A stretch of DNA of 64,000 nucleotides from Gammaproteobacteria bacterium (GCA_020027215.1 JAHRAO010000031.1:8603-72602), one strand, 5' to 3'; shown: positions 6,619 through 37,998, counted from the stretch's first letter. The notes: generated from the sequence alone by a model not told the origin. Numbers and translations: made by a program.

Positions 6619-6864
6619 ATTCAAATAATAGTGCATAAAGCATAATAAATACTATTTCATAGTATGATGTATACCTGAAATGGTTATACGTTATCTCTCT
6701 AATACAAACAGCAAAAAAAAGTATCTCAAAAGCCTGCAATTAAGTAAAGAACTAGATAAAACATCAAAACCAATACATCAGGTAGTTTTTCTGTATTAAA
6801 ATCCTGTGAGATTATAACTGAGAGAAAGTTCATAGGAAGCGATATCAATGGCTAAAATATATAA

Positions 6865-7157
6865 ATGGCTAAAATAAGAGAAACAAAAGGAGGTAGAAGA
6901 GATGGAGGGTATTCTAGACTATTTGGCAATGAAGATTTAGGGGCATTATTTAGCCAATACATGCAACAAGTATTAGAGCCGGTACAGAGTTAGAACACTT
7001 AATAGAAGATACGGCAAATGTACTAGAAGACATAGATGGATTTATTGATGCTTCACTAGAAAAAGGTACATACTTAATAACTAAAAAGTTGATGAAAAGG
7101 CACCAGCAGGATAATATTACATATCTAAAAGAATGTTTTGCAAAATTAAATATATAA
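6865..7157 (+). pseudogene. frameshifted, C-terminally truncated remnant of a type II restriction endonuclease, paralogous to the ORF at 37318-37998
   Basis: Frame 1 reads MAKIRETKGGRRDGGYSRLFGNEDLGALFSQYMQQVLEPVQS* with the stop at 6991. The -1 frame from 6978 reads AGTELEHLIEDTANVLEDIDGFIDASLEKGTYLITKKLMKRHQQ...* with the stop at 7155. Joined, the two pieces align with [80 protein letters not shown]. The PD-(D/E)xK core is missing. Confidence 0.7.
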
Positions 7158-7873
7158 TCCCCTTAAAGAAGGATGCAAAAAATTATTGCACACTTCTCAT
7201 GGTGTGATGCCCGCGGTGTTATGTGGGCATGGACATATTTAATTCTGTTTTCTTTTCTCTCCTGTCCCGTTCAAATATGATGTGCCGATATAGAAGAAAC
7301 CTATTTGAAGTGTTGAAAGCGCAGGTGGGTCGAATGCCAATCGGCGGCAAATGAACGCACTATAGATGATAATGGCGTGATGTGGGGGAATATCTTTTAT
7401 AGAAATAATTGAGCACTGGCTTTAATATGCAACTCTCTTTGCACAAGCGTTTGAGGAATATCGCCAGCCATTGCGACATTGATGGAAACAAGGGATAAGT
7501 AACGGTGCCGCCTCTCTCCTAAGGGAGGGGGCATCCAACTTTCTGGAATATAGCCTACACTATCACCATAAAATAGTGCATTTAGAAAATCAGCGGATAG
7601 ATGAGACCGTCAACGCATCCGCCCAATTATCTGGCGTGCCACAACTAAAAAATTTCCGCCGCGCATTACATTCTTAAATAAACTCTTCAACCCTGTATGC
7701 TTTATTCTTGCCTTGCCTCGCTTGCCCCGACCCGTTACAGTACTCACGCCTAAAACAGCCAGCGCTGTATGGAACAGCGCCCGCAAGCCCAAAATGGAGC
7801 ATTACTTGTCTTGTGATAATTTTGGGCTTGCGTATCAAGCGAAATACAGGGACGTATTGAGCGTAAAAACAGC

Positions 7874-10800: not shown

Positions 10801-11935
10801 AACCACCGCTTGGACAACCAGTGTTGGTGCTACTCGTACCGTTGTGCATATGTGATCCGTCGAGATCATTGCGCATATAAGATAAGTCTGTGGCGTTGCA
10901 TATTTCAATTAACCTATCGTCATCTATATCAATATCGCTTGTTTCTCCCACCGGCAAAGGTAAAGTTCTTGTTACCGTGCTCACCCCATCACTCACCGAG
11001 AGTAGGGTTGCATATGACCCTGCTACATTCCCAGCAGTATAAGTTGCGGTGACATTGTTCCCGCTTTGTGTGCTCAATACAATATTGCCTTGAGCAGGTG
11101 TTATGAATGACCATTGTAGGGGTTGGGCATCTGGATCTATAGCAGACAAACTAAAGACGCGCATTCCAGAAAGCGCAATAGGCGTGCAACCATAATTTGG
11201 TGAAATAGTAATGCTTGGCAGGCGGTTTAGGATCATTACATTGATATTAATTGTCGCCGTCTTATCACCATTGGACAAACTGATGGTCAATGAGCTCGCG
11301 CTTTGGGGTGCTACTCCATTGGTGTTATAAGTCAATTGGGTGCTCTGCCCATTAGCTGTAGATAACATGGCGGAACCAGTAGACGGCTGTGTGCTAATCA
11401 TCCATTGAGGGTTAGATAGATTGACCCGCGCATTAAGTGTTAAGTTGATGGTTTCATTAGTAAAAAGCGATACAGTGTGGCTCGTTCCTTGGGTAATTGG
11501 CGGGCGGACATCAACCATCACCCTTACCGGTGACGATGTTTGCGTGCCAGTGGTCACAACAAAGGTAAAACTATCGTTACCGATATAATCATCATTGGCG
11601 CGATAGGATAGTGATAAATTATCTAAATTACCCGTTGCTCCAACGGCGAGTTCTGTGCCATTGGCTATTATGTGCCCGTTAGATGGGGCAAAGGTTAAGC
11701 GATATCCGTGCCCATTCGTGCTGGATAGCATAAACGGCTGCGCACCTAACCATGTGGCGATGAGTTGAGAGGGCAATTCAATGTTAATTGTTACTGTGCC
11801 ACCGCCACCTGTGCCGTTACCGCCGCCGCCACCTGTGCCACCGCCACCTGTGCCGTTACCGCCGCCGCCACCACATGCACCTACAAATAGGGCAATGCAC
11901 AAACTAAATACTATATAAGTTATTCTTGTATTCAT
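7874..11935 (-). CDS. giant surface lipoprotein (1353 aa) with Gly-rich linker, Ig-like domains, FN3 domain and two GLUG-motif repeat modules
   Basis: Lipobox LFVGAC at aa 17-21, followed by a (G4-5 N/T G T) linker. Three ~95-aa Ig-like segments come next. Two paralogous modules span aa ~334-816 and ~924-1346. Each module has an Asp-rich Ca-binding-like stretch (DIDIDDD / DIDGDGLIDISD), then CP..C.GYEL, then repeated GG[LI][VI]G GLUG-type motifs. An FN3-like segment (VSLQWENP...YTFTVRTIY) lies between the modules. Confidence 0.85.
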   Translation of the reverse strand: MNTRITYIVFSLCIALFVGACGGGGGNGTGGGGTGGGGGNGTGGGGTVTINIELPSQLIATWLGAQPFMLSSTNGHGYRLTFAPSNGHIIANGTELAVGATGNLDNLSLSYRANDDYIGNDSFTFVVTTGTQTSSPVRVMVDVRPPITQGTSHTVSLFTNETINLTLNARVNLSNPQWMISTQPSTGSAMLSTANGQSTQLTYNTNGVAPQSASSLTISLSNGDKTATININVMILNRLPSITISPNYGCTPIALSGMRVFSLSAIDPDAQPLQWSFITPAQGNIVLSTQSGNNVTATYTAGNVAGSYATLLSVSDGVSTVTRTLPLPVGETSDIDIDDDRLIEICNATDLSYMRNDLDGSHMHNGTSSTNTGCPSGGCMGYELGADIALQGEWMKVGTNSNPFTAIFDGNGYTISGLMITVATGELTVSGASDCRGRELVDNIGLFGVVRNSIIRNVVVHQPNITGQECTGAIVGQALHSTLTQLTVVGDNDHSTYEVTGEARKSATSDAIYGGEVGGIVGRLRDSRLTLSSSTVTVQGPNQISGLPSSNPARFTGGAVGYADRSYISQVYVDANVYLGRDSTSGIPPPYIGLIIGQQNEGVTEQVWARGEVHIRGRLFGSTNVPARAGGLVGSLLNGVMQNAWANVDIRCPECNIILTGFGGALGEAWRTSADQDNTIIRNVWVFGRVHQNRGRGFYGRYAESPTQPIMRGRNYYNGANPNDPQAIGLSDNELRALRNDSLSGQTTDEKKYTNWSAGFDWDNDGTLEVNAGGDDLLSIYCDNDASGRIETIEQVSHNAVWLYGTDAHRPALNCLRIDLQPQTPIQPEVLNLQAAIGERRVSLQWENPGIHYQVNPNTAVITWTPAGGLAQPVRLQITPSRLSSTTITGLTNDIEYTFTVRTIYAPSTQSMGVQVSATPMMAVDIDGDGLIDISDASGLESIRDDLDGNGIDDGNIQTSTPLGTSGCPIPKCTGYELSGDITLSDNWIPIGNDSTPFRSIFRGNGYVINNLNIDTTTTNYVGLFGATDGADISSLTLTVERVRGGNHVGALIGDARNSTIKDIFVQSVFSTTTITGRSPVGGLIGKIDNSTLIHIGNEVEVRLTNGQYIGGIAGEMTHSNSWVSAVYSSARISIEHTLDQTNAAGGLIGHMANGRLQNGWARMIIIYPSASQRFIGGLVGGQANGTIQNAYAISTHNTTAGSRRGGAGGYITSGNARSIWTSIAHDGDNSGAPGSIFNRSYGFIYLVENADYSNKTDYYFVSQEEYGGRDISNARRYGQNQRRTFTQIKALTDTETRWNNGHSNDPTSQYCDTNRNRIIENSEKATNNRIWDYGKTTQSPIIRCIAPNKQPR
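11794..11871. repeat. perfect 39-bp tandem duplication (2 copies) inside the Gly-rich linker of the giant lipoprotein gene
   Basis: tgtgccaccgccacctgtgccgttaccgccgccgccacc occurs at 11794-11832 and again at 11833-11871. It encodes a duplicated 13-aa Gly-rich unit. Confidence 0.9.
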
Positions 11936-12034
11936 AATTGTTTTCAGTGAGTATTTATTGGAGGATGTTGCTGGAGTGTTAAAGAAAATTGATAATATCC
12001 ATACTGTTTTCTAGCTCTTTGTCTTCAATTGCCT

Positions 12035-12346
12035 TCAAGGCATACCTTCGGCAATATGCCAGCTAGCATAGGCAAAACCCGCACTACATATAAAAGCCAG
12101 TATGACTGTAACGGGAGTAATGACAATCACATCAAATTGTATGCCAAATGGATGGAACATGGCAATAATCACTGTTGCGATTACTCCGAATATCCCCCAG
12201 AGCCAGTAATCACTTTTGTGTGTTCGACGCGCGTGGATTATGGCGTGTTTCCCTGCCATTTTTCTGGCAAAAGAAGGGGAATTGACGAGCGGTTCTGTTT
12301 GTCGTAACTGTTTGAATACCCGCTCTAATACTTTACCTTCATTCAT
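12035..12346 (-). CDS. small two-TM membrane protein; putative anti-sigma factor by position only
   Basis: 103-aa ORF starting 5 nt after the ECF sigma stop. It has a basic N-terminal tail followed by two hydrophobic segments. No HxxxCxxC zinc motif is present. Confidence 0.55.
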   Translation of the reverse strand: MNEGKVLERVFKQLRQTEPLVNSPSFARKMAGKHAIIHARRTHKSDYWLWGIFGVIATVIIAMFHPFGIQFDVIVITPVTVILAFICSAGFAYASWHIAEGMP

Positions 12347-12350
12347 AGCG

Positions 12351-12881
12351 TTACAATTGCCAATGGCTTAACTTTGTGCGTAATTTTATTTTACCACGAA
12401 AAATGTGCGATTTTACTGTCCCTATGGGTATCCCTAATATTTGTGCAATTTCACTTTGATCGTACTCGCGATGGAGGTGTAGATGAAGCACCATCCGTTG
12501 AGTAAGAGGGAAGGTTGATAAAAGGTGAGCGACTTGTCGGTGTATGTCATAGTCAATCATGTCGTCAGAAGACGATGATGGCATAGATTCCAATATGGGC
12601 TCGTTGACTGTGGCGATCTTTTGCTTGCGATAATAATCGTTCAGACAGTTACATGCAATGCGGTAGAGCCATGTTTGCAGATTGGACTTGTGATTAAAAC
12701 GTGCTAAATGTTGCAACATTTTTAAGAAAGTATCTTGCAAAATATCATCAGTCAATTGTGCATTCCATCCCGTCATTTGCAAAACCGAGTATCGCAAAGG
12801 CGATTGATAATGCTGAACTAAGGCGGTAAATGCATCAGGATCATCTACGGCTTTGCTCACTAGGGATGGAATGTCTTCCAT
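12351..12881 (-). CDS. ECF-family RNA polymerase sigma factor (sigma-70 group 4)
   Basis: Region 2 motif: DILQDTFLKMLQHLARF...TWLYRIACNCLNDYYRK. Region 4 motif: QRMVLHLHLHREYDQSEIAQILGIPIGTVKSHIFRGKIKLR. Confidence 0.9.
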   Translation of the reverse strand: MEDIPSLVSKAVDDPDAFTALVQHYQSPLRYSVLQMTGWNAQLTDDILQDTFLKMLQHLARFNHKSNLQTWLYRIACNCLNDYYRKQKIATVNEPILESMPSSSSDDMIDYDIHRQVAHLLSTFPLTQRMVLHLHLHREYDQSEIAQILGIPIGTVKSHIFRGKIKLRTKLSHWQL

Positions 12882-12905
12882 TCGCTATTAGGCGCAGCTG
12901 ATACG

Positions 12906-13646
12906 CTACCCGTTTTTTTGTCCTAATTTCCAATGAACCAAATGGGCAATCCCTATAAATAAAGGAATCAACCCTAATGCACCCCAGTTGATACTGAATA
13001 GCATGCTTAGTGCGATGATCAATGCTAAACCCAAACCTATATTCACCATTCCTCTATGCAGAGGCGACCATACAGTGCGTGGCTCTAAATTGCGAATGGT
13101 TTCTTCAGAAAGCGGTTGCCCGCTGTCAATTAATTTGGCAATGATTTCACTGCGCATCTTGTATTTGCGATAACTAAAATAGAGCACAATCCCCAAAATA
13201 GCTATCGGCGTGCCAAATGAAAAGAGAATAGCCCATATAGGGATCAATAAATCCTCCCAATCCACGCCCGTGCCCATATCAATGGAATCCGTATTGCGCA
13301 GTGCGATAATATTTTTTGCGTGCGCAGTCTTTATTGCCTCATGCACCTGTGCTTTTTGTTCATCGTCCAGAGGGATATCGTCAATAATAGTGTGTAGATG
13401 ATCTAAGGCGGTGCGCAGGGAACCTGTATCTTTATTCACAATGCCTTCCAGCAATGCGGATATTTCCGCTTCGGTGTCATCGCTCAGATTCAGATCGCTG
13501 AAATCTACTTGAATACTACCCATATCCCCGTCAATGTTGTATGAAAACGCTGCACTGTTTTCATACTCTGTATTGGCATCTGCGAATACTAAGTTGTTAT
13601 AGTAGATTGTGGCGAGCATACAAGCCAATAACATTAATATTTTCAT
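12906..13646 (-). CDS. secreted/membrane protein, first gene of the ECF sigma operon
   Basis: 246-aa ORF with an AGGAGA SD and a signal peptide (MKILMLLACMLATIY...FADA). An acidic periplasmic region is followed by 3-4 C-terminal TM segments. Confidence 0.75.
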   Translation of the reverse strand: MKILMLLACMLATIYYNNLVFADANTEYENSAAFSYNIDGDMGSIQVDFSDLNLSDDTEAEISALLEGIVNKDTGSLRTALDHLHTIIDDIPLDDEQKAQVHEAIKTAHAKNIIALRNTDSIDMGTGVDWEDLLIPIWAILFSFGTPIAILGIVLYFSYRKYKMRSEIIAKLIDSGQPLSEETIRNLEPRTVWSPLHRGMVNIGLGLALIIALSMLFSINWGALGLIPLFIGIAHLVHWKLGQKNG

Positions 13647-13686
13647 AATAGTTCTCCTATTGCAATAATAAAATTATTTATTCTTA

Positions 13687-13717
13687 TTAGACGATTATTG
13701 TGGCAAAAAAGTTGCAC
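13687..13717 (-). promoter_or_regulatory. ECF-type promoter upstream of the membrane-protein/sigma/anti-sigma operon
   Basis: The minus strand reads GTGCAAC-TTTTTTGCCACAATAAT-CGTCTAA. This gives an AAC -35 element, a 17-nt spacer and a CGTC -10 element, ~40 nt upstream of the ATG at 13646. Confidence 0.5.
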
Positions 13718-13865
13718 CGATATTACATTTATTTTATGCACACATTTTTGTCCATCCGCATGGATTTCATTTTGTCGTCAATTGAGACAATGAATCAAAT
13801 TGCAGGAAGTGGCGACAAGTACTCGTTGTCTGCGGGACAACCGCTACACAACAAATGATTAAGGC

Positions 13866-14221
13866 AGTGGAACGACCTATAAGCCGGGTTCTGTGCGGGT
13901 GGAGAACCCGCGGCAGCCATTCATCTACGATCGACATCACTGCCAACCTTTAACGACCTACCCAATTCCGATGCAGGCGACATCATAGGAATCCTATTTG
14001 GTCTTTCTCCGAGTGGGGTTTACCATGCCGTCTTTGTTACCAAAGACGCGGTGTGCTCTTACCACACCATTTCACCCTTACCTAAAAAATAGGCGGTATA
14101 TTTTCTGCGGCACTCGCCGTGGATGAACATCCCCCAGGCGTTACCTGGCACTCTGCCTTATGGAGCCCGGACTTTCCTCCCCCAGCATAATTGCTGGCGG
14201 CGACTGCCCAGCCGTCCCACT
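13866..14221 (-). ncRNA. rnpB: RNase P RNA, bacterial type A
   Basis: The minus strand contains GGAGGAAAGTCCGGGCTCCATAAGGCAGAGTGCCAGGTAACGCCTGGGGG, then GGTAAGGGTGAAATGGTGTGGTAAGAGCACACC, then CACAGAACCCGGCTTATAGGTCGTTCCACT. The 5' AGTGGGACGGC pairs with the 3' GTCGTTCCACT to form P1. The ends are approximate to a few nt. Confidence 0.93.
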
Positions 14222-14251
14222 ACTTTTTAGTATAAATGATTTGCTACAATT

Positions 14252-15079
14252 ATGGGGCATATGACCATGAAATTAATTGATATAGGCGCCAATTTAACCC
14301 ATCCTGCTTTTGCACACGATTTATCTGTTGTGTTGGATCGTGCTTTCGCCACGCATGTTGTGCAAATGATTGCCACAGGCACGGATGTGCTTTCTATACA
14401 GCAGGGTATTGAGCTCAACGCCATGCATCCCCAGCGCATTTTCACAACAGTGGGATTGCACCCGCACAACAGTAAAGATTTTTCAGATGCAATCGGTGCG
14501 GAATTGATGCAGTTGGCGCATTCACCCGCGGTAGTGGCTATTGGCGAGACGGGGTTAGATTTTAATCGCAACTATTCTCCACCCGCACAACAAGAAAAAG
14601 TATTTGAGTGGCTATTGGAACTTGCTGTTGCCCGCAATTTGCCTTTATTCTTACACGAGCGTGATGCACATGATCGCTTTTTTGATATAGTGCACCATTA
14701 TCGCGAGCAGTTGCACAATGTAGTCGTCCATTGTTTTACTGGCGATAGGCGTGCATTGTTTCGTTATTTAGATTTGGATTTATACATTGGTATTACTGGT
14801 TGGGTATGTGATGAACGGCGTGGATACGATCTCCACCCACTGCTTCCCTCTATTCCCAATAATCGCCTTATGATTGAAACCGATGCTCCATATTTGTTTC
14901 CGCGCGGCGTCATTGTACCGCCGGGAGTCAACCAACAACGCAATGAACCTTGTATGTTGCCATTTATTTTAGAAGAAGTTGCTCGCCATCAAAAAAAACC
15001 TGCGCAAGAGGTCAGTCAGAATTTAATTGCGACAACGCGTGCTTTTTTTGATTTACCCGATATTTCTATGGCGGATTGA
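14252..15079 (+). CDS. tatD: TatD-family metal-dependent DNase/hydrolase
   Basis: Motifs MKLIDIGANLTHPAF...TVGLHPH...AIGETGLDFNR...FLHERDAH...VVHCFTG...IETDAPYL. The true start is probably the ATG at 14261 or 14267. Confidence 0.85.
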   Translation: MGHMTMKLIDIGANLTHPAFAHDLSVVLDRAFATHVVQMIATGTDVLSIQQGIELNAMHPQRIFTTVGLHPHNSKDFSDAIGAELMQLAHSPAVVAIGETGLDFNRNYSPPAQQEKVFEWLLELAVARNLPLFLHERDAHDRFFDIVHHYREQLHNVVVHCFTGDRRALFRYLDLDLYIGITGWVCDERRGYDLHPLLPSIPNNRLMIETDAPYLFPRGVIVPPGVNQQRNEPCMLPFILEEVARHQKKPAQEVSQNLIATTRAFFDLPDISMAD

Positions 15080-15167
15080 TTGTGTTTATTCATTTATTAA
15101 AAATATCCGTTATAATACGGGTAGCGGTTTTTTAGGATTTTTTAATAGTATTAAAGGTGTTTTCTCT

Positions 15168-16196
15168 ATGAGATTAATTTCTATCAGCATTCTATTAGTT
15201 GCATTAACTGTAGGTGTCACGGGATGTCAGTCGTACAAAGCTGCTCCTGCAAAGATTTCGGCAAACTTTTTTGATATGGGTCATAGAGTGGACATTAGCC
15301 CGCACCAAGTCCGACAAGAAAAACCCAAGCGCCCGCGGCTATCTATCGGCGCCGAATGGCATGAAACTAGCCCAGAAGAAGTAGTATTGAAAGTGCTGCT
15401 ATCGGGTAAACGTTTTACCAATTTGATGCATGTGTCGCTAAATGTGACCAATGCTATTGATGCGAATACTCAAGATTCTGCACTTGGATTAGAGACCGAC
15501 GATACATTACCCACCGAAAACGAAGAAACAGAAATTGTGTCCGATCTTGACTCGTCAATGGCTCATAATGAGACGGATCGTCAGGTAGAGGATGCAATGA
15601 GCGATGAAGAATGGGAAGAGGAAATTGCGACCGAATGGGACGAAGTGAGTGGTGCCGAAGTGAATAATGATGACCAGACGAATGCAGAAGATGTCGCAGT
15701 GGAAGAAGATGTTGCCATGGAAGGAGACGTTGCAATGGAAGAAAATATTGCCATGGAAGAAGATAACGACAATATGGTTGATCATATTATGTCTTCACAA
15801 GAAGTCGAAATGGTTGCAGAAAATACAGACGATGTTATCGTTGCCGGTACTGTAGAGAGCGAGGACAATGTGAATGATGCTTCACAAGGCGTTCAAGTGG
15901 CGCTTAACGGAGATACGAATGGCCAAGGCATTGAAAAAACTTTAAACCTACAAGCAAAAGGACATACCCGTTATTCGTCTTTCGGCAAGGCGGGCACCAA
16001 GTTACACTCGCGACGCGACTTTGTCGTCCCCCTCAATGAACTGGAAAATATAGTCACTGCGGTGTGGGCATCGGTATCAGTTCAAACACCCAATGGAGAT
16101 GTTAAAGGTTATATTGTTTCTCCCGATGGAGATAAAAATGCCGCTCACGGTGCATTTAGGCGCTTTCTTTACGCCATTAAACAAGTGAATTATTAA
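15168..16196 (+). CDS. acidic repeat-containing lipoprotein
   Basis: An internal ATG at 15168 gives MRLISISILLVALTVGVTGC (lipobox VTGC). The upstream 47 codons of the tracked ORF overlap the tatD 3' end and look non-coding. The central region is very rich in D/E. Confidence 0.75.
   Translation: MRLISISILLVALTVGVTGCQSYKAAPAKISANFFDMGHRVDISPHQVRQEKPKRPRLSIGAEWHETSPEEVVLKVLLSGKRFTNLMHVSLNVTNAIDANTQDSALGLETDDTLPTENEETEIVSDLDSSMAHNETDRQVEDAMSDEEWEEEIATEWDEVSGAEVNNDDQTNAEDVAVEEDVAMEGDVAMEENIAMEEDNDNMVDHIMSSQEVEMVAENTDDVIVAGTVESEDNVNDASQGVQVALNGDTNGQGIEKTLNLQAKGHTRYSSFGKAGTKLHSRRDFVVPLNELENIVTAVWASVSVQTPNGDVKGYIVSPDGDKNAAHGAFRRFLYAIKQVNY
15687..15758. repeat. four tandem 18-bp (6-aa) imperfect repeats, EDVAVE/EDVAME/GDVAME/ENIAME
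   Basis: Read directly: gaagatgtcgcagtggaa, gaagatgttgccatggaa, ggagacgttgcaatggaa, gaaaatattgccatggaa. Confidence 0.85.
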
Positions 16197-16216
16197 TACT
16201 TCGATTGAGATTTCCT

Positions 16217-16402
16217 ATGTTGCTCACCTATGTGTTCGCCCTATTGATCTTTGCGACTATCGTGGTCATTATGGCCGTTGGCGTGTGCTTTGGTCGTGAA
16301 GCGATTCGCGGATCCTGTGGCGGATTGAGCAAATTGGGTATGAAAGAATCCTGCGATATTTGCGGGGGAGACCAAAAGAAATGTAAGAAGGCGTCTACCT
16401 GA
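16217..16402 (+). CDS. nqrM: NqrM-like (DUF539) small membrane protein
   Basis: One TM segment (LLTYVFALLIFATIVVIMAVGV) is followed by the Cys cluster GSCGG...SCDICGG...C, as in the Na+-NQR maturation factor NqrM. ATG at 16217; the tracked ORF begins at a TTG at 16205. Confidence 0.65.
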   Translation: MLLTYVFALLIFATIVVIMAVGVCFGREAIRGSCGGLSKLGMKESCDICGGDQKKCKKAST

Positions 16403-16411
16403 CGCTACCTA

Positions 16412-17647
16412 ATGTTTCAACCGACTGTACTGTCTATTGCACTGCGTTATGTAATTAGTGTCGGAGAGCGCTTCGCACTAATTTTATCACTTTTTTCGTT
16501 ATCGGGTTTAATCATCGGTGTCATCGCTTTGATAACGGTGATGTCAGTGATGAATGGCTTTTCTCATGAACTCCATACCCGTATTTTTGCCGCCGTGCCC
16601 CATGCTTTTATTTTCCCCAAAGATAAACGCCTTGCCGACTGGCAATCTTTAACACAGCAATTAGAAGAGCGCCCCGACGTTCTAGCCGCGGCACCTTATA
16701 TCGGTGGTGATGTGATGGTTGCAGCACATGGGCGCACGCGGGGAATTGAACTGAAAGCAATTCTACCCGCACAAGAAAAGCGCATTGCTCAAATTGCTGA
16801 CCGATTTACTGTCGGCACATTAAACAATTTAATCCCAGGACAATACGGCATAGTCCTCGGCAATTTACTGGCTAAACAATTACGTGTGGATATTGGTGAT
16901 AAAGTGATGGTCACCTTGCCCCAAGTCAATCAAAGTTTATTGGGTGTTTTCCCCCGTAGCCGACGTTTTCAAGTAGTGGGATTGTTTGCTTTGGGAAATA
17001 CGCTAGATGCGACAACAGCATTCATCAATTTACAGGATGGGCAACGCCTTTATCGCACAGGCAATAGAGTACACGGGATACAAATCAAAACGCCCAATCG
17101 CTACGATAGTTTAAGTATTGCGACGACAATTGCCAATGAATTGCAATACAATCAATTAGATTGGAGCGTCATACATGCCACTCTATTCCGCGCCATTCGC
17201 ATTGAAAAAAATATGATGTTTTTAATGTTATTAGTGGTGATATTGGTTGCCGCGTTTAATATAGTCGCTTTGATGAGTATATCGGTATCCAATCGTAAAA
17301 GAGATATTGCCGTATTGCGCACTTTAGGGATGACGCGTACCCATATCGTATATATCGTGCTTTTGAAAGGGATGATATTGAGTGTTTGTGGTGTGGGAGG
17401 CGGCTTTGCTCTAGGTCTCCCGCTGGCGTATTGGGCGGGAGATATTGTCGCTTTTTGGGAAGAGATATTCGGTATCTACCTATTTGACCCCAATTTATAT
17501 TTCATCACTAAAATTCCGTCAGTCATTTATATCACCGATGTGTTACTGATTGGAGGTAGTGCAATTCTCTTGGGTATTGTGGCTACTTTTTATCCAGCAT
17601 GGTATGCCCGTGATATCTCCGTAATTGAGGAACTGCGCTGGGAGTAA
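16412..17647 (+). CDS. lolC: lipoprotein-releasing ABC transporter permease LolC
   Basis: 411-aa FtsX-like permease (LSIALRYV...) followed by lolD and a paralogous permease. This is the classical lolCDE order. Confidence 0.88.
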   Translation: MFQPTVLSIALRYVISVGERFALILSLFSLSGLIIGVIALITVMSVMNGFSHELHTRIFAAVPHAFIFPKDKRLADWQSLTQQLEERPDVLAAAPYIGGDVMVAAHGRTRGIELKAILPAQEKRIAQIADRFTVGTLNNLIPGQYGIVLGNLLAKQLRVDIGDKVMVTLPQVNQSLLGVFPRSRRFQVVGLFALGNTLDATTAFINLQDGQRLYRTGNRVHGIQIKTPNRYDSLSIATTIANELQYNQLDWSVIHATLFRAIRIEKNMMFLMLLVVILVAAFNIVALMSISVSNRKRDIAVLRTLGMTRTHIVYIVLLKGMILSVCGVGGGFALGLPLAYWAGDIVAFWEEIFGIYLFDPNLYFITKIPSVIYITDVLLIGGSAILLGIVATFYPAWYARDISVIEELRWE

Positions 17648-17650
17648 ACA

Positions 17651-18343
17651 ATGAATAATGCCGAAGTGCCTTTGGAGTGTCAGAATGTCGTTAAAACATA
17701 TAACGATGCCCAGCAGAGTATTTGCGTATTATCCGATGTGGCGTTACGGGTGGCAAAAGGCGAAAAAGTGGCTATTCTTGGGGCGTCAGGTTCAGGAAAA
17801 TCTACTTTGCTCCATATTTTGGGGGGCTTGGATCGCCCCGATTCTGGGGTTGTGCGTTTAGGAGGGTACGAAATTACTCAATTATTACCCCATAAACTGG
17901 ATCGTCTGCATAATACGTATGTTGGTTTTGTTTATCAATTTCACCATTTATTATTTGAGTTTACCGCGGTGGAAAATGTGGCATTACCATTACTCATTGC
18001 GGGAAAACCTGCCCGCACTGCTAATGCGCTGGCGGCAGAATGGTTGAATAAAGTGGGCGTTATGCATCAAACTCATCGTCCATCTCAACTGTCGGGCGGC
18101 GAACGCCAACGGGTGGCGATTGCCCGCGCACTCATTCATTCACCACAGTGTGTATTACTGGATGAACCGACCGGTAATTTAGATCAACACAATGCTGGAC
18201 AGGTGTTGGATTTAATGTTAGCATTGAGTGAGCAGACGCACGTTTCTTTTGTAACCGCCACCCACGACCCCATAGTTAGTGAGGCAATGGATAGAGTATT
18301 GGTTTTAGAAAGGGGAAAACTATGTTCTTCTTCAGCCCCGTAA
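17651..18343 (+). CDS. lolD: lipoprotein-releasing ABC transporter ATP-binding protein LolD
   Basis: Walker A GASGSGKST, signature LSGGERQRVAIARAL, Walker B VLLDEPTGNLD. Confidence 0.92.
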   Translation: MNNAEVPLECQNVVKTYNDAQQSICVLSDVALRVAKGEKVAILGASGSGKSTLLHILGGLDRPDSGVVRLGGYEITQLLPHKLDRLHNTYVGFVYQFHHLLFEFTAVENVALPLLIAGKPARTANALAAEWLNKVGVMHQTHRPSQLSGGERQRVAIARALIHSPQCVLLDEPTGNLDQHNAGQVLDLMLALSEQTHVSFVTATHDPIVSEAMDRVLVLERGKLCSSSAP

Positions 18344-30978: not shown

Positions 30979-31030
30979 AAAGATAAATCCATTATGGATT
31001 CTATGTAATGCGTGAGTGAGGTCACAGACG

Positions 31031-31786
31031 ATGAAAAAAATAGCTATTGCATTGATTGCTTGGATTATTGCGATCAGCGGGCATGCGGCGAATGATTTAC
31101 CCCCGCCAATGGTGGAGGCGCTGGAAAAAGCAATTGATGGCGATCTCCGTAGCGAAAAGGATCGCGCAAGAGATGCCAATCGCAGACCGTTGGATACGTT
31201 AAAATTTTTTGGTGTGCGTAGTAATATGCGTGTATTAGAATTGTTGCCGGGAGAGGGCTGGTACACCAAAATTCTCGGTCCTTATTTGCAACATGGCGGC
31301 GAATTGTCGGTGGCTATAGGCACTCAGCGCATAGAGAAGCGGATAGAAAAGTGGGGATTATCCAAGGTGCGGATTTTAGCGAAGGATACGAAATTTGACC
31401 TCAGTGGCGGGCGCGGATTTTTTTCGTTGAATAAAGTGAAATTGCCAGTGAATTATTTTGACGCGATAGTGACTTTCCGCAATGCCCATAATTTTGGTGC
31501 CCCCTCAAGGAAGATGTTAAACAAAGTCCTATTTAAGTCGCTCACATCTGGTGGAATTTACGCTATCGTCAGTCACACAAAACGACACATGGAACCTTTT
31601 AACAAAGAAACTTGGCGACGAGTTGATCCGGTGCAACTCATTAAAGAAGTCCAGGAAGCGGGCTTTATCTTTGAGGATTATTCTGATATTCATTACCGCC
31701 CAGACGATGAGTTGCGCTACGATACGACTCGCCCATCCATTAACCGCAATAGTGATCGTTTTACGCTGAAGTTTATTAAGCCGTGA
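31031..31786 (+). CDS. exported class I SAM-dependent methyltransferase-like protein
   Basis: The internal ATG gives the signal peptide MKKIAIALIAWIIAISGHA. The motif I-like VLELLPGEGWYT is followed by GGIYAIVSH. Confidence 0.7.
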   Translation: MKKIAIALIAWIIAISGHAANDLPPPMVEALEKAIDGDLRSEKDRARDANRRPLDTLKFFGVRSNMRVLELLPGEGWYTKILGPYLQHGGELSVAIGTQRIEKRIEKWGLSKVRILAKDTKFDLSGGRGFFSLNKVKLPVNYFDAIVTFRNAHNFGAPSRKMLNKVLFKSLTSGGIYAIVSHTKRHMEPFNKETWRRVDPVQLIKEVQEAGFIFEDYSDIHYRPDDELRYDTTRPSINRNSDRFTLKFIKP

Positions 31787-31803: not shown

Positions 31804-33252
31804 ATGAGTGTACAGGACAACGGCTGGATAAGCTATTCTTCACAGCATTTTTATGATGAGTTGCTGACTGCGCGGCGACAACCGCGTAGAATAGCACGCA
31901 AACTGATCCCTTACTTACAAAGACTGTCGTTAGACGATCTCAATGCCCGCCATAAGAGCGCTGAATTGGCGATCCGTGAAATGGGCATTTCATTTACTGT
32001 TTATAGCGAAGCCGGGGAAATAGATCGTGCGTGGCCTTTTGATATTATTCCCCGTATTATCCATGAAAAAAATTGGCGTGAAGTGAGCCGCGGACTCGTC
32101 CAACGCGGAAAAGCACTCAATGCTTTTATTAACGATGTTTATAATCAACAACGTATTTTTGCCGATAAAATCATCCCGCCAGAACTCGTATTAAAATCAC
32201 CCTATTACAAAAAAGAATGTAGGGGTATGCAACCAGCTTATGGGGTGTGGTCGCACATTTGTGGGAGTGATTTAGTGCGCGATCACAAAGGCACTTTTTA
32301 TGTTTTAGAAGATAATTTGCGTATCCCGTCAGGGGTTTCTTATATGTTGGAAAATCGTGAGATTACTAAACACGTTTTTCCAGACCTCTTTGAACATTAT
32401 CGGGTGGTTCCTGTTGATGATTACGCTTCGCAACTCTTTCGTATGTTGGCATCACTATCGCCGCGCCAGCGTAAACATCCGTGTATTGTGGTGCTCACCC
32501 CTGGAATTTATAATTCTGCTTATTTTGAACACGTCTTCTTGGCGAAAAGTATGGGCACCAAATTGGTGGAAGGGCGCGATTTGTTTGTGGATACCGATGA
32601 TTGTGTGTATATGCGCACGGTAGATGGTTTGGAGCGTATTGATGTGATTTATCGCCGAGTAGATGATGATTGCCTCGATCCAAAGGTATTTAATAAAGAA
32701 TCTTTATTAGGTGTGCCGGGTTTGATTCGTTCGTGGAGGCAGAATAAGGTGGCGATTGCCAATGCTCCCGGATGTGGTGTTGCAGACAGCAAAGCGGTGT
32801 ATGCCTATGTGCCAGATATGATTCGTTATTATCTCAAGCAAAAACCGATTATTGACAATGTGAAAACATACCTGTGCTCCGATCCGACCGATAGAGATTA
32901 TGTGTTGGATCATATTGACCAATTAGTCATCAAACCAGTCTATTCTTCAGGGGGATATGGAATTACGGTCGGACCACATGTCAGCCGTGCTCAGCGCACC
33001 CGCTGTGCAAAAAGTATTGGGCGTGATCCACGGGGTTATATCGCCCAGCCGATGATTGCACTTTCTACGGCACCGATTTTTGATGGTCGTAAGGTAGCCC
33101 CACGCCATTTGGATTTGCGCCCCTTTATTTTGCAAGGTAAGTCATCATGGGTCACCGCGGGTGGATTAACGCGCGTGGCGATGAAAGAAAATTCTTTAGT
33201 CGTTAATTCATCGCAAGGTGGCGGGAGCAAGGATACTTGGGTGATCCGGTAG
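31804..33252 (+). CDS. circularly permuted type 2 ATP-grasp protein (COG2308 / DUF404-DUF407 type)
   Basis: GSDLVRDHKGTFYVLEDNLRIPSGVSYMLENR, VVLTPGIYNSAYFEHVFLAKSMG, IDVIYRRVDDDCLDP, GVADSKAVYAYVPDMIRYYL, APRHLDLRPFIL and LVVNSSQGGGSKDTWVI. These match the family as I remember it. Confidence 0.88.
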   Translation: MSVQDNGWISYSSQHFYDELLTARRQPRRIARKLIPYLQRLSLDDLNARHKSAELAIREMGISFTVYSEAGEIDRAWPFDIIPRIIHEKNWREVSRGLVQRGKALNAFINDVYNQQRIFADKIIPPELVLKSPYYKKECRGMQPAYGVWSHICGSDLVRDHKGTFYVLEDNLRIPSGVSYMLENREITKHVFPDLFEHYRVVPVDDYASQLFRMLASLSPRQRKHPCIVVLTPGIYNSAYFEHVFLAKSMGTKLVEGRDLFVDTDDCVYMRTVDGLERIDVIYRRVDDDCLDPKVFNKESLLGVPGLIRSWRQNKVAIANAPGCGVADSKAVYAYVPDMIRYYLKQKPIIDNVKTYLCSDPTDRDYVLDHIDQLVIKPVYSSGGYGITVGPHVSRAQRTRCAKSIGRDPRGYIAQPMIALSTAPIFDGRKVAPRHLDLRPFILQGKSSWVTAGGLTRVAMKENSLVVNSSQGGGSKDTWVIR

Positions 33253-33260
33253 ATGATCGT

Positions 33261-34184
33261 ATGTTGAGTAGAGTCGCCGAACGATTGTATTGGACTGCTC
33301 GTTATTTAGAGCGCAATGAAAATTTAGCATGCTTGATTAATACCTACACTCGGTTTGTTTTGGATATCCCCACAACATCGGATTTCGGATGGGATAATCT
33401 CATTCAAGTCGTCGGTGGCGAGGATGCATTTGAGCACCGCTATAAAGATTACTCCGAAAAAAATGTATTGCGCTTTTTAATTACTGACAAAAAAAATCCC
33501 GGCGCTATTTGTTGCACAATGCGAGCCGCCCGCGAAAATGTGCGCACAACTCGCGACACCACGCCCGATCAATTTTGGGAATTAGTCAATGCCTTGTATT
33601 TATACGTTAATGATAATGCCGATAACGCTATTGCGCGCCGTGGGCGTTTTGAATTTCTTGAGCATTTAATCGCAAAAATGCAACAAATGACTGGGGTGAT
33701 TAATTCGAGATTGTCGCGCGAACATGCCTATCATTTTATTCATGTAGGGCGAATGCTGGAGCGTTCGGATATGAGCAGTCGCATTATTGATGTTGCCGTC
33801 ACAATGGCGTTGCGCTACGGTGATAAAACATTGCCCGAGATGAACTGGTTGTGGGCAAATTTGCTCAAATCTTTGGGCGCATTGACCGCCTATCGTGAAA
33901 TAGCCGGTCCTTTGATTGATGCCAATGGAGTGGTCAATTTCATTTTTAACCACACCCAATTTCCGCGTTCTATTCAACATTGCCTCACCGAAATGCAAAC
34001 AATCGCCAAACAATTGCGCCACCCGCAGAAATTTATTCTTTTACTCGGCAAAACACAAAAACGTATTGAGCTACTGCGGGTTGATAAGGTGACTCTCAAG
34101 AAAATGCATCATTTCATTGATCAACTCCAGCGTGATTTCTCACAATTAAATCGCCAAATATACAAACTCTGGCTCGCGCATTGA
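33261..34184 (+). CDS. alpha-E domain protein (COG2307 / DUF403)
   Basis: MLSRVAERLYWTARYLERNEN... and ...HFIHVGRMLERSDMSSRIIDV. It lies immediately after the ATP-grasp gene, which is the canonical pairing. Confidence 0.85.
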   Translation: MLSRVAERLYWTARYLERNENLACLINTYTRFVLDIPTTSDFGWDNLIQVVGGEDAFEHRYKDYSEKNVLRFLITDKKNPGAICCTMRAARENVRTTRDTTPDQFWELVNALYLYVNDNADNAIARRGRFEFLEHLIAKMQQMTGVINSRLSREHAYHFIHVGRMLERSDMSSRIIDVAVTMALRYGDKTLPEMNWLWANLLKSLGALTAYREIAGPLIDANGVVNFIFNHTQFPRSIQHCLTEMQTIAKQLRHPQKFILLLGKTQKRIELLRVDKVTLKKMHHFIDQLQRDFSQLNRQIYKLWLAH

Positions 34185-35224
34185 AAAGATTCTACTGCCA
34201 TCTCTGTAACCACTCGGTTTTCTTTGATAGTATTTCGTGCCTGAATTGTCATGCACTCTTAGGTTTTGATGTGCACCAAATGACCATGCGCGCTGCTTTA
34301 CCAGATGAAAAAGCAGCCTTACCCGATTTCCGGTTGTGTGCCAATGGTTGGCGCTATCAGGCGTGCAATTGGCTGGTCAACGAAAATGACCCTCACCCTT
34401 ATTGCTTTGCATGCCGCTTCAATCGCATTATTTTAGATATGGTCCACGAACAAAACTTATTGCGCTTTCGTTGTTTTGAGCAGGCAAAAAAAAGATTATT
34501 GTTCACTCTATTAGAGTTACAGATCCCATTGCATAATGGATTTGACTCTCCACATGATGGATTATTGTTTGATCTTGTTGAAGATCAGCGAACGGCTCCC
34601 GAACGCTATATAGAAAGCTTTGTACATACGGGATTCAAAGGAGGCGTGATTACCATAAATGCCCTTGAAGCGGATGATGTCTTTAGAGAGCAAATTAAAA
34701 GGGAGATGAATGAACCCTACCGCACATTGCTCGGACACTTGCGGCACGAAATAGGGCATTATTATTGGTCAATCCTTTCGCTTTCTAGTGCAATGCAAAT
34801 CCAATTCCAGAAATTATTTGGAGATGTGCATCAGGATTACAAAAAAGCATTGGAGCATTATTACAATAATGGCAATAGACAATGGCACAATGAATATATC
34901 AGCCGTTATGCCAGTGCCCATCCATTAGAAGATTGGGCTGAAACATGGGGGCATTACTTGCATATTTACGATGCTTTGGATACGGCTTTTTCTTATGGTT
35001 CATTGGCACATTCGCCGGCGACAATGGATATTGGTACGCGCATTTCCACTTGGATGGAGTGGAGTATTATGCTCAATGAATTGAATCGCAGTATGGGTAT
35101 CGACGATCCTTATCCTTTTGTCCTCAACGCACAAGTCATTGATAAATTGACCTATGTGAACCATACCATTGAACAATTACGTGTTCAAGAGATCAGAGCC
35201 CCCGTTTTTAGTCACCGCCGGTAA
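34181..35224 (+). CDS. zinc-ribbon + HExxH zinc metallopeptidase (Peptidase_Mx-like)
   Basis: TTGA start/stop overlap with the alpha-E gene. N-terminal zinc ribbon CHLCNHSVFFDSISCLNC. HExxH motif in LRHEIGHYYW, and a downstream EDWAETWGHY. Confidence 0.75.
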   Translation: MKRFYCHLCNHSVFFDSISCLNCHALLGFDVHQMTMRAALPDEKAALPDFRLCANGWRYQACNWLVNENDPHPYCFACRFNRIILDMVHEQNLLRFRCFEQAKKRLLFTLLELQIPLHNGFDSPHDGLLFDLVEDQRTAPERYIESFVHTGFKGGVITINALEADDVFREQIKREMNEPYRTLLGHLRHEIGHYYWSILSLSSAMQIQFQKLFGDVHQDYKKALEHYYNNGNRQWHNEYISRYASAHPLEDWAETWGHYLHIYDALDTAFSYGSLAHSPATMDIGTRISTWMEWSIMLNELNRSMGIDDPYPFVLNAQVIDKLTYVNHTIEQLRVQEIRAPVFSHRR

Positions 35225-35923
35225 ATTGTTAAACGCGTCTTGGATGTTCTTATCCCAACTGCGACGTAATACCACTAAATAATTATCGTCATCCTGAAAT
35301 GATTGGTAGTAAGGTTCCTGGCAACTGTCTGCAGGCACATACAGCAATTCTATGGGTGGTCCGACTGTCGCATTACTTGCCATAGTGGAATCCATAGACA
35401 CCAATGCACAGCGCATCGCAATTTCTGGCAGGGTATCTTTTCGGATAATCCGATCTAAAATGGGTTTGCCATACTTTGTTTCGCCGATTTGTAGGAAAGG
35501 ATGCTGACCAGAAATAGTAATATAGTTGCCCTCTGGATAAATCATATAAAGCTCGTGTTCACCGCCTTCAATTGTGCCGCCGAGAATGAAGGTTGCTTCT
35601 GTCTTAAAATCGGGTTCTCGCCCATTGGTATATTTTTGTTGGGTTTTAATACTCAATTCGCCAATATAATCCGCTATTTCCCTGATATCGTGTGTTTGGT
35701 AAATTTTGGAGTCATCGCCTTCAATATCGCGGCGGATTTCGGCAATGACCGCTTGTGAGGTGGATAAATTGCCTGCTGCCAATAAGACTATGCGGTGTGA
35801 ATGGTGTTCAAGGAATTGGTGTAGTTTACCGTAAATGCTCACTTTATCTGCCCCAGCATTGGTGCGCGAATCAGAGCAGAAAATTAGCCCCGTTTCAATG
35901 CGGATAGCAATACAGTAGGTCAT
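35177..35923 (-). CDS. Anbu-type proteasome-like Ntn peptidase (COG3484)
   Basis: The N-terminus MTYCIAIRIETGLIFCSDSRTNAGADKVS is the Anbu signature, with Thr2 as the predicted nucleophile. The 248-aa beta-subunit-like length fits. The gene is adjacent to the ATP-grasp and alpha-E genes. Confidence 0.85.
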   Translation of the reverse strand: MTYCIAIRIETGLIFCSDSRTNAGADKVSIYGKLHQFLEHHSHRIVLLAAGNLSTSQAVIAEIRRDIEGDDSKIYQTHDIREIADYIGELSIKTQQKYTNGREPDFKTEATFILGGTIEGGEHELYMIYPEGNYITISGQHPFLQIGETKYGKPILDRIIRKDTLPEIAMRCALVSMDSTMASNATVGPPIELLYVPADSCQEPYYQSFQDDDNYLVVLRRSWDKNIQDAFNNLPAVTKNGGSDLLNT

Positions 35924-35935: not shown

Positions 35936-36343
35936 TTATTCAACTGCGTGTATATCAACAAATATTGCTTTGTGCAGTGCGGCATAGAAATCTTGATAAA
36001 ATTTGGCAACGGTCACTTGGTCGTTACCGTATTGTGCACTTGTTCGCACTAATAATTGATTATTATTTTGTTTCCTCACGCTAATGGTCAGACGGGTATT
36101 CACTTCGCTGGTTTTCAGTGCGGTGATGGTTCCCAATTCTGCATCCGCCCGCTCAATGATAAAATCTAAATCTTGTAGTGTGGCGATGATATTGCGCATC
36201 ATTGCGTTCATATCATTTCCATCAAAAGAGCGCTCTTGCAGAGCACGGAGTTCTAATTGATTAGGCGTGTTCAGTAAGCGTGATGTCAGCGAAGAGCAGG
36301 CACACAACATCATTACAGTCATCACAATCCATATTATTTTCAT
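35936..36343 (-). CDS. lipoprotein (135 aa), paralogue of the upstream 180-aa lipoprotein
   Basis: Lipobox MLCAC. ALQERSFDGNDMNAMMRNIIATLQDLDFII...FYQDFYAALHKAIF parallels LQSRFYSAKDEGQMLAAMVALLQDTGYTI...LYNDFYNKLSKALF. ATGA overlap with the upstream gene. Confidence 0.75.
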   Translation of the reverse strand: MKIIWIVMTVMMLCACSSLTSRLLNTPNQLELRALQERSFDGNDMNAMMRNIIATLQDLDFIIERADAELGTITALKTSEVNTRLTISVRKQNNNQLLVRTSAQYGNDQVTVAKFYQDFYAALHKAIFVDIHAVE

Positions 36344-36882
36344 ATTCGTTTTGCTTCTATGAATAGGGCTTTGGATAATTTGTTGTAAAAGTCATTATAT
36401 AGTTCTTCATCGTTGAGGACTCCAGCCCGCGATAAACTGCCGTCTAGGTTGCGAATCACGCGCTGGAATGTCGTACGCACTACAAATCCCGATTTATCGC
36501 GTTTAGAAGGGCGCGATACTATACTAATACGAATATACTGCTTGTGCTCAAATGACGCAACATGACTTGAAGAGGTTAAGCTACTTAAAAATCCTAAAAA
36601 CATTTTCCCCGCAACATCCTTGGCATTGATCGCACTGGCAATTTTTGATGCCGAAATTAAACCGAGTTTTTTATGGGCGGCATCAATCGTATAGCCCGTA
36701 TCTTGTAACAAAGCGACCATTGCCGCCAACATTTGCCCTTCATCTTTAGCGGAGTAAAACCGAGATTGGAGTTGCCTATCGCCGAGCGTAGTTGGGGTCA
36801 GCGCTAATGGATTTGCCGGAAGGCACGCCGTTAAGAAAAATGCAATAAAAACAACAGGTGCTGTTTGGTAGAGCAGTTCCAT
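36340..36882 (-). CDS. lipoprotein (180 aa), function unknown
   Basis: Lipobox FLTAC. The start shares 1 nt with the upstream stop (TAATG). Confidence 0.75.
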   Translation of the reverse strand: MELLYQTAPVVFIAFFLTACLPANPLALTPTTLGDRQLQSRFYSAKDEGQMLAAMVALLQDTGYTIDAAHKKLGLISASKIASAINAKDVAGKMFLGFLSSLTSSSHVASFEHKQYIRISIVSRPSKRDKSGFVVRTTFQRVIRNLDGSLSRAGVLNDEELYNDFYNKLSKALFIEAKRI

Positions 36883-37277
36883 TAAAACTGCGAAGAACGG
36901 TATGCAAAATCGCGCACTTTATTTTCTTCGTCAAACTTGACAATAATCGTCAAGGAGCGTTGCGTTCGCGAGGCAACTCGGTTTGAATGGGTACCACCTG
37001 CAATAACGGCAAAAATCCATGTATTTTTCTTTGAGATTATTTCCTCAGTGGCAACGCGATCGTATATCCAGACCTCGCCCTGTTCATCGGTGGACACAAT
37101 ATTGGGTGTCCCTAATACCTCTGCAACGGCAACGGCATTCATCCCGATACGAATTTCTTTTTGTACCGTGCCGACGGTCAGTTTTTTAGCCGATGTGTCG
37201 CCCACTTCAGCCGTCTGCTCACTGACTGCGACACAGCCTGCAAAGAGTATGGCGATAAAAAAAATAGAGAACTTCAT
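36882..37277 (-). CDS. BamE/SmpA-OmlA-like small lipoprotein
   Basis: The internal ATG at 37277 gives MKFSIFFIAILFAGC (lipobox). LTVGTVQKEIRIGMNAVAVAEVLGTPN...EVWIYD resembles the SmpA_OmlA fold motif. The longer tracked ORF (start 37325) would overlap the endonuclease gene. Confidence 0.65.
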   Translation of the reverse strand: MKFSIFFIAILFAGCVAVSEQTAEVGDTSAKKLTVGTVQKEIRIGMNAVAVAEVLGTPNIVSTDEQGEVWIYDRVATEEIISKKNTWIFAVIAGGTHSNRVASRTQRSLTIIVKFDEENKVRDFAYRSSQF

Positions 37278-37292
37278 AAAAATTTTTGTTAA

Positions 37293-37300
37293 TAAATTTT
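37293..37300. repeat. 8-bp direct repeat TAAATTTT (left copy), putative target-site duplication
   Basis: It directly abuts the left inverted repeat. An identical octamer directly abuts the right inverted repeat at 38786-38793. Confidence 0.7.
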
Positions 37301-37323
37301 GGACATTATATCTAATGTTAGCC
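37301..37323. repeat. left terminal inverted repeat GGACATTATATCTAATGTTAGCC
   Basis: The reverse complement of 38763-38785 is GGGAATTATATCTAATGTTAGCC. This repeat overlaps the last sense codon and the stop of the endonuclease gene. Confidence 0.9.
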
Positions 37324-37998
37324 ATTAATAAAACCCTTTATTTTGTCTTTTATTTCAGAAATTTTTAGTAATTCTTTGATGAAAAACAATATATTCTTTT
37401 GTCCGTCTTGCTTGCGTAAATATATAATTTCATCATAATCTATTTCTAGCAATTCACAGAATTGTCTACCAGTTAGTATTTCGCCAATAGGTATTTTCTT
37501 TTTGAATCCGTGAAAAATTGCTTCTCGGTCGTTTTGATTAAAGCAACAAATATGACTAGAAACAGTACTTTGCAATCTGTGTCCATTGCGCTCTGCAAAA
37601 CTATGTACTGTTGCCCTCTCCGCAGACGCCTTTTTGGTATCGAAGACATGTCCGTCTTTTAATTCTACGATATAACAGTTTTGTTTGCCGTGCCTTCGCT
37701 TAAATATAATAAAATCAGGTTCGGCAATTCCACTATGGTCAAAAAGTTCACATTTCTTTACTTGTTTTTTTGGTGCAACAGATACCCCTTCTGGTATTAA
37801 TTCTTTTTCTAAAAAGTCGTCTAGGTTCTCTATTTTATATACCCTATTCATTATCATACGCTCTAATTCAAAGCCAGCAGATATGACTGTCGATTGTATT
37901 CTGCTAATAAGTTGCCCTAGCGATTTATTGCCAAATACCCTTTCATATCCGCCAGAGGATTCCTTAACCCTGCTGTTTTCAATGAGTGCCATACACAA
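37318..37998 (-). CDS. type II restriction endonuclease (PD-(D/E)xK)
   Basis: 226-aa ORF overlapping the 3' end of the methyltransferase gene by 20 nt. The candidate catalytic motif is AEPDFIIF...YIVELKDG. Specificity is unknown. Confidence 0.7.

Follow-up and report, generated by a model that had tools for sequence, protein, structure and literature searches.

A variant of the Anbu gene cluster with a predicted zinc peptidase in a gammaproteobacterium and its relatives

Anbu is the least understood bacterial relative of the proteasome, in that structures exist but no function had been reported as of 2021 (PMC8665760). Its classical operon, known from the PA1733 region of Pseudomonas aeruginosa and from Yersinia bercovieri, consists of co-directional genes for an ATP-grasp protein (COG2308), an Alpha-E protein (COG2307), a transglutaminase-like protein (COG1305) and, last, Anbu itself (COG3484) (PMC3235984, PMC5666114, PMC6376114). 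Here we analysed a 64-kb stretch of DNA from a gammaproteobacterium (GCA_020027215.1, JAHRAO010000031.1:8603-72602; the window), which at 31804-35923 carries ATP-grasp and Alpha-E genes followed by a gene for a putative zinc peptidase of the Peptidase_Mx family (Mx), and an Anbu gene that faces them from the opposite strand. The question raised by this locus is whether such an arrangement is a local accident or a form of the Anbu system in its own right. We consider it likely that the locus belongs, with all its parts present, to a conserved variant of the Anbu/ATP-grasp/Alpha-E system, in which a ligase core is combined with interchangeable peptidases.

Four proteins and the recurrence of their order

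The four open reading frames (ORFs) named in a preliminary description of this DNA were all found in the ORF listing, and the families to which it had assigned their products were confirmed by Pfam and by matches to solved structures (Table 1; all coordinates of the locus are positions in the window). The ATP-grasp protein covers the full CP_ATPgrasp_2 profile (E = 5.9e-161), also matches CP_ATPgrasp_1 (E = 9.9e-134) and the structural-genomics entry PDB 3n6x (E = 2.5e-145), and is 57-68% identical to its orthologues in related loci. The second product contains an Alpha-E domain (Pfam E = 4e-73), and Mx combines Zn_ribbon_DZR_6 (PF10005, E = 1.9e-19) with a full-length match to Peptidase_Mx (PF15887, E = 1.2e-84), a family annotated by NCBI as 'putative zinc-binding metallopeptidase'. 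Residues 2-235 of Anbu match the solved structures 5loy (E = 3.2e-59), 5nyw (E = 7.5e-52) and 5lox (E = 3.3e-51), as well as 5nyj and 5nyf; the top match, 5loy, is the Anbu-1 consensus protein, and the other four are natural Anbu proteins. NCBIfam offered no model for any of the four.

Table 1. Features of the locus and the evidence for their identity
Feature	Position	Strand	Evidence
Circularly permuted ATP-grasp protein (COG2308 type), 482 amino acids (aa), predicted amide/peptide ligase	31804..33252	+	Pfam CP_ATPgrasp_2, CP_ATPgrasp_1; PDB 3n6x
Alpha-E protein (COG2307 type), 307 aa from ATG	33261..34184	+	Pfam Alpha-E
Zn-ribbon plus HExxH zincin, Peptidase_Mx (Mx; formerly DUF2248), 347 aa, TTG start	34181..35224	+	Pfam PF15887, PF10005
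Anbu, proteasome-like N-terminal nucleophile (Ntn) hydrolase, Anbu-1 type, 248 aa	35177..35923	-	Matches to solved Anbu structures
Shared 3' coding ends of Mx and Anbu, 48 nucleotides (nt)	35177..35224	.	Direct sequence reading

For an Anbu-centred survey, one genome per species in GTDB was searched with an Anbu alignment, and the best 80 loci, whose Anbu proteins are 43-60% identical to that of the window, were classified with the window's proteins and a local hidden Markov model (HMM) of the transglutaminase. The order of the window, Anbu> <Mx <Alpha-E <ATP-grasp, was the commonest single architecture (24 loci, plus 2 cut by contig ends). Seven loci have moved the ligase genes but kept the tail-to-tail pair (<Alpha-E <ATP-grasp Anbu> <Mx), and four more share this moved order with Mx not adjacent or the contig ended. 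Anbu> <Alpha-E <ATP-grasp without Mx was found at 11 loci, Anbu adjoining a transglutaminase, often a protein of ~1100 aa with transglutaminase and DUF2126 domains, at 17, and an ATP-grasp gene next to Anbu on the same strand at 2, while 14 Anbu loci were uninformative. Convergent Anbu is thus the majority state in this 80-genome sample, which includes Porticoccus, Haliea/Halioglobus, Marinimicrobium, Gilvimarinus, Glaciecola, Pseudidiomarina, Woeseiaceae, Wenzhouxiangellaceae and many gammaproteobacterial metagenome-assembled genomes (MAGs). Carriers of the window's architecture include Marinimicrobium locisalis (L065), a Gilvimarinus strain (L059), a Glaciecola strain (L077) and a Wenzhouxiangellaceae chromosome (L079). 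As such, the variant architecture proposed in the preliminary description, with an Mx partner and an inverted Anbu unlike the published co-directional operon, held, but not as a local oddity, given that 24 + 2 of the 80 genomes are arranged alike. In the comparative count that it had called for, Anbu and Mx form an adjacent, convergent pair at 33 loci.

The same four genes in the same order and orientation were also found in the related locus L001 and in eight metagenome loci. A 4.8-Mb contig with a 52%-identical Mx homologue carries just these four genes, with a 29-nt overlap of the 3' ends. An Mx-centred scan of JGI metagenomes gave convergent Anbu at 16 loci and none at 50, counting loci with room downstream. 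On a maximum-likelihood tree built from 84 Anbu sequences, that of the window is placed in a well-supported clade of 12 loci with the same architecture and one that has lost Mx. Judged by sequence comparison, then, the zinc-peptidase variant is widespread and evolutionarily conserved in gammaproteobacterial relatives, and the window is another member of it. It is apparently undescribed: the Anbu papers compared (PMC5666114, PMC6376114, PMC3235984, PMC8665760) describe only the transglutaminase operon, although Iyer et al. 2009, which lay outside this comparison, may mention a metallopeptidase partner.

The locus that has lost Mx, L007 (a Halioglobus MAG, 10001-13164), reads Anbu> <Alpha-E <ATP-grasp with ~80 nt between and Mx cleanly gone. 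Its Anbu is the closest sister of that of L001, which makes it a recent natural deletion of Mx that can be compared with an Mx-bearing sister.

Active sites, start codons and the convergent junction

All predicted catalytic or metal-binding residues of the proteins of the locus are intact. In the window's Anbu, the threonine directly follows the methionine (MTYC..., no propeptide), and Asp17 and Lys32/33 are present; Thr1, D18 and K33 (Met = 1) are invariant across 84 aligned sequences, save for one Ser at Thr1. The S1 pocket consists of T20, Y30, A48, L52 and S55 and contains no arginine, and hence is of the amphiphilic Anbu-1 kind and not of the basic Anbu-2 kind; the pocket of Pa-Anbu is amphiphilic with T20, F30, T48, L52 and S55, while that of Anbu-2 is basic (Fuchs et al. 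2017, PMC5666114). Both catalytic and S1 residues of Anbu are alike whichever partner, Mx or transglutaminase, adjoins. In Mx, an alignment of 51 proteins revealed eight invariant cysteines (C6, C9, C20, C23, C53, C62, C75 and C78) and the invariant zincin residues H189-E190-x-x-H193 (H189-E190-I-G-H193 in the window), E250, D251, E254 and H258.

Peptidase_Mx, or DUF2248, was predicted to comprise metalloproteases (Lenart et al. 2013, PMC3650047), and a literature search for Peptidase_Mx, PF15887 and DUF2248 returned only this fold prediction of 2013 and no characterised member. The AlphaFold2 model of Mx (predicted local distance difference test, pLDDT, 88.7), in which the last seven residues are predicted to be disordered, had no significant match among PDB folds. 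Its best match, the MtfA-like hydrolase 3khi (E = 0.22), would point in the same direction as the zincin prediction of Lenart et al. but, being non-significant, adds nothing firm to it. The all-helical model of the Alpha-E protein (pLDDT 91.4) likewise gave nothing significant against PDB folds (best E = 0.084), and the sequences of solved structures included no relative of either Alpha-E or Mx.

At the last plus-strand junction, the stop codon of the Alpha-E gene (TGA, 34182-34184) and the TTG start of Mx (34181-34183) share the TTGA that had been noticed before. Comparison with homologues indicates that this TTG is the right start: it gives an N-terminus, MKRFYCHLCN..., that is conserved in homologues of ~348 aa, which have the N-terminal CxxC...CxxC in common, while P0001, the public call for this gene (312 aa), takes Met36 of Mx as its start and so loses the first Zn-ribbon CxxC...CxxC (34181-34288). 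For the Alpha-E gene, ATG 33261, which lies 8 nt after the ATP-grasp stop, is the more likely start than TTG 33237, from which the longest ORF would run to 315 aa (33237-34184), because the Alpha-E proteins of relatives begin with MLSRVAERLYW.

The 3' ends of Mx and Anbu overlap by 48 nt, as had been described, since the stop codon of Mx (TAA) lies at 35222-35224 and that of Anbu at 35177-35179 (TTA on the plus strand). Because Anbu, on the minus strand, converges with its plus-strand partner genes, it cannot be part of the ligase/Mx operon, again in line with the preliminary description. The same convergence was seen in 33 of the 33 adjacent Anbu/Mx pairs, 25 of which overlap in their coding 3' ends by 8-110 nt (most commonly by 47, 44, 41, 59 or 29 nt). 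In 23 of these 25, the overlap length equals 2 mod 3, so that the relative frame is kept across genera; a constant relative reading frame is expected if the junction has one ancestor and was never opened. The 48 nt of the window equal 0 mod 3 and are an exception, therefore one of its two tails has shifted. Terminator and promoter scans of the locus stayed at chance level, with no terminator-like element at the Mx/Anbu junction, and RNA folds at this junction were no more stable than those of shuffled sequences (z-scores 0.29 and -0.97).

As to expression, all four genes of L002, a Porticoccus relative, are covered in part and at low depth by contigs of four marine metatranscriptome runs, among them 151-nt pieces of 100% identity across the Anbu/Mx junction. 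These contigs carry no strand information and might derive from carried-over DNA; at most, they weakly hint at transcription of the module in the sea. The classical operon was the most strongly induced locus of Pseudomonas putida under nitrogen limitation (Valas & Bourne 2008, PMC3235984, note added in proof). In the window, matches to sigma-54 sites were no more frequent than expected by chance and did not occur upstream of either transcription unit, and none was found upstream of the ATP-grasp gene in 38 related loci or of Anbu in 44; nor was a shared upstream k-mer motif found among related loci. Nitrogen control of the zinc-peptidase variant is unsupported, since neither a sigma-54 site nor a shared upstream motif was found.

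Transglutaminase, neighbouring genes and rival readings

The preliminary description had Mx stand in place of the transglutaminase and noted that the window lacks the latter. The absence is borne out for the 64-kb window, in which neither a transglutaminase nor a DUF2126 domain was detected (best E = 0.48) by the local HMM, which was built from 32 loci and detects those loci. As for the replacement, the two proteins do rarely share an Anbu locus, with a transglutaminase in 2 of 26 Mx-adjacent loci against 27 of 38 Anbu loci without adjacent Mx (Fisher p = 4e-7, uncorrected for phylogeny), but they co-occur elsewhere. It could be argued from this strong anticorrelation, and from the place of Mx immediately behind Alpha-E, which in the classical operon is taken by the small transglutaminase, that Mx is a functional substitute for the transglutaminase-like protein at the same step of one pathway. 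We find such a strict replacement doubtful, as Mx is annotated together with transglutaminase, Alpha-E and ATP-grasp genes, without Anbu, on Caballeronia and Hymenobacter plasmids, and as all three peptidases are present in L053 and L054 (Mx, Anbu and a giant transglutaminase-DUF2126 protein) and in L057, where the giant transglutaminase lies between Anbu and Mx. In addition, in the metagenome loci L120 (2280-7122) and L160 (2607-7029), genes for ATP-grasp, (Alpha-E,) transglutaminase and then Mx follow one another on one strand with no Anbu downstream, L165 being similar except for an Alpha-E match upstream of the ATP-grasp gene; in all three, Mx fills the position that Anbu has in the classical operon. 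The absence of a transglutaminase is, moreover, established for the 64-kb window only. Mx is also found alone, in a Ralstonia megaplasmid and in Sphingomonas. Comparison of all these loci suggests that partners of the Anbu system are gained and lost often, and a zinc peptidase that mostly excludes the transglutaminase, of Cys-peptidase fold, around Anbu, yet occurs together with it elsewhere, offers a natural comparison between the two.

Other readings concern the position of Anbu and the junction itself. Only 12 nt lie between the start of Anbu and the last of three lipoprotein-like genes on the same minus strand, opposite to the ligase genes, so that Anbu might belong with these three genes, or act alone, and merely abut an unrelated ATP-grasp/Alpha-E/Mx operon by chance. 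This is very improbable, because none of the 81 related Anbu loci, where the genes upstream of Anbu vary by genome, contains a homologue of the lipoprotein genes, and because the grouping of Anbu, Mx, Alpha-E and ATP-grasp recurs in many genera, in loci whose proteins, being only 43-60% identical, speak against one recently transferred element. A role in anti-phage defence or as a toxin-antitoxin-like system, which a nearby restriction-modification cassette might bring to mind, is extremely improbable: PADLOC gave no match for any of the four proteins, the cassette is absent from the related loci, and the classical operon in P. putida responds to nitrogen limitation (PMC3235984). Of more weight is the suggestion that the conserved 3' overlap serves regulation, with convergent transcription or antisense pairing making the expression of Anbu and that of the ligase/Mx operon interdependent. 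The frequency of the overlap among adjacent pairs, the persistence of the tail-to-tail pair even where the ligase genes have moved, the lack of a terminator or stable hairpin at the junction and the RNA-derived contigs that cross it in a relative would all fit, and overlapping convergent ends indeed allow 3'-end coupling of functionally linked genes to be put to the test. Nevertheless, we hold this to be unlikely: neither the length nor the sequence of the overlap is conserved, the overlapped codons encode poorly conserved, partly disordered tails, gaps of 0-28 nt take its place in the moved-ligase loci and of 9-171 nt in some loci of the same order, and the junction contigs carry the reservations given above. 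The overlap equally 'locks' Anbu and Mx together, as a break there would damage both, and the persistence of a pair that is hard to separate anyway may be neutral.

Two deep Anbu clades, one of Mx type and one of transglutaminase type, were considered and ruled out: loci of the two types intermingle on the tree, which requires at least 13 changes, and they do not differ in their S1 pockets.

Several features beside these genes were observed. The three small lipoprotein-like genes (35936-37325, minus strand) overlap or abut at their ends (stop/start overlaps of 4 and 1 nt), and, since they end 12 nt before the Anbu start, they probably share a transcript in which Anbu comes last; as they lack homologues in the related loci, the link between them and Anbu would be specific to the source genome. 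On the other side, a gene for a 256-aa protein with a signal-peptide-like N-terminus (31016-31786, plus strand) stops 17 nt short of the ATP-grasp start. Pfam and NCBIfam gave nothing for this protein and PADLOC just a weak match to mad2 (E = 0.002), and no counterpart was found in related loci.

In five related genomes, a conserved, very acidic protein of ~90-120 aa with the motif LTELRRRTEERLDWKR and no Pfam match is encoded directly upstream of Anbu on the same strand (L048 9547-9837, L051 6085-6360, L053 3617-3889, L054 9392-9748, L064 9395-9820). Its gene, which is absent from the window, follows a gene for an AMP-binding enzyme, either directly or with one short ORF between, and its product could be an unrecognised partner or substrate. 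In the Cellvibrio loci L018, L027, L039 and L043 (~10000-18100) and L033 (~1400-10300), ATP-grasp and Alpha-E are apparently fused in ORFs of ~850 aa; in the first four, Anbu, a giant transglutaminase-DUF2126 protein, the ATP-grasp/Alpha-E fusion and a small transglutaminase follow on one strand, an order that L033 shares except for an additional ORF behind Anbu.

Proposed working of the module and comparison with known systems

Returning to the likely reading of the locus as a ligase core with interchangeable peptidases, we propose that the ATP-grasp protein, together with Alpha-E, would spend ATP on an amide bond (peptide or isopeptide) via an acyl-phosphate, with a small molecule or a protein as acceptor. 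The ATP-grasp protein of Y. bercovieri releases phosphate from ATP (Piasecka et al. 2018, PMC6376114). The peptidases that accompany the core might trim, remove or degrade its product, or proteins marked by it; here these would be Mx, with zinc, and Anbu, a threonine Ntn hydrolase, and in the classical operon the transglutaminase-fold cysteine enzyme. The three unrelated peptidase types may be modular accessories of one ligase core, the lineage of the window having the set Mx plus Anbu. If a zincin is interchangeable with a protein of Cys-peptidase fold, a hydrolytic role of this slot is favoured over cross-linking, and the comparison of Mx with the transglutaminase argues for accessory slots that are hydrolytic. 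Since the genes converge without a terminator between them, the two transcription units would have to read into each other, which may couple their expression or be mere compaction.

Several points weigh against this interpretation. No substrate, product or physical interaction has been reported for any version of the system, and purified Anbu neither showed peptidase activity on standard substrates nor assembled stably with its operon partners (Piasecka et al. 2018, PMC6376114). The Mx family is far wider than the module, as nearly all homologues at 41% identity or less in the Mx-centred scan are stand-alone, and therefore Mx need not act on the ligase product. The neighbourhood statistics are uncorrected for shared ancestry, with the Mx-adjacent state requiring at least 13 changes on the Anbu tree. 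In the window itself, the position of Anbu 12 nt behind three lipoprotein genes ties its transcription to unrelated genes, and the sole sequencing run that holds the window's sequence is DNA from a cold seep metagenome; no RNA run holds it.

The dodecameric ring of Pa-Anbu is open, and the protein binds proteasome inhibitors (Fuchs et al. 2017, PMC5666114). Here we also speculate that the tail-to-tail pair of Anbu and Mx is itself the conserved unit, the zincin being a dedicated partner of Anbu that acts as activator, gate or substrate-preparing enzyme for the open ring. The pair is kept at the seven loci where the ligase genes have moved and once without ligase genes nearby (L060). Although we regard this as quite unlikely, it would, if true, explain the inactivity of purified Anbu, and convergent transcription across the overlapping 3' ends would fix how much of Anbu and of Mx is made relative to each other. 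For the module as a whole, a four-gene version with two peptidases is simpler to reconstitute.

Compared with the systems already known, the zinc-peptidase variant is real, conserved and part of a known but unsolved system, and the value of the window itself is confirmatory, as it contributes a further member, from an uncultured bacterium of a cold seep, that is rather divergent, with no more than 64% identity to any relative. With the classical Anbu operon the locus shares the ATP-grasp, Alpha-E and Anbu-1-type families, the placement of ATP-grasp and Alpha-E genes adjoining Anbu, the residues Thr1, Asp17 and Lys33, and the Anbu-1 type of S1 pocket. It differs from that operon in having no transglutaminase in 64 kb but a Zn-ribbon zincin after Alpha-E instead, and in that Anbu, which in the classical operon is co-directional and last, lies on the opposite strand, tail-to-tail and outside the ligase operon. 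The same ligase core is found in the giant transglutaminase-DUF2126 clusters, which occur with Mx in L053, L054 and L057, whereas the window is without DUF2126 or any transglutaminase domain; these clusters, with their ATP-grasp and Alpha-E genes, we take to be the circularly permuted GS-like amidoligase systems of Iyer et al. 2009. Within the Peptidase_Mx family, the window's Mx is typical in its full-length match, its HExxH and its eight invariant cysteines; while members of this family are mostly encoded by stand-alone genes, it belongs to a subgroup that is locked tail-to-tail with Anbu.

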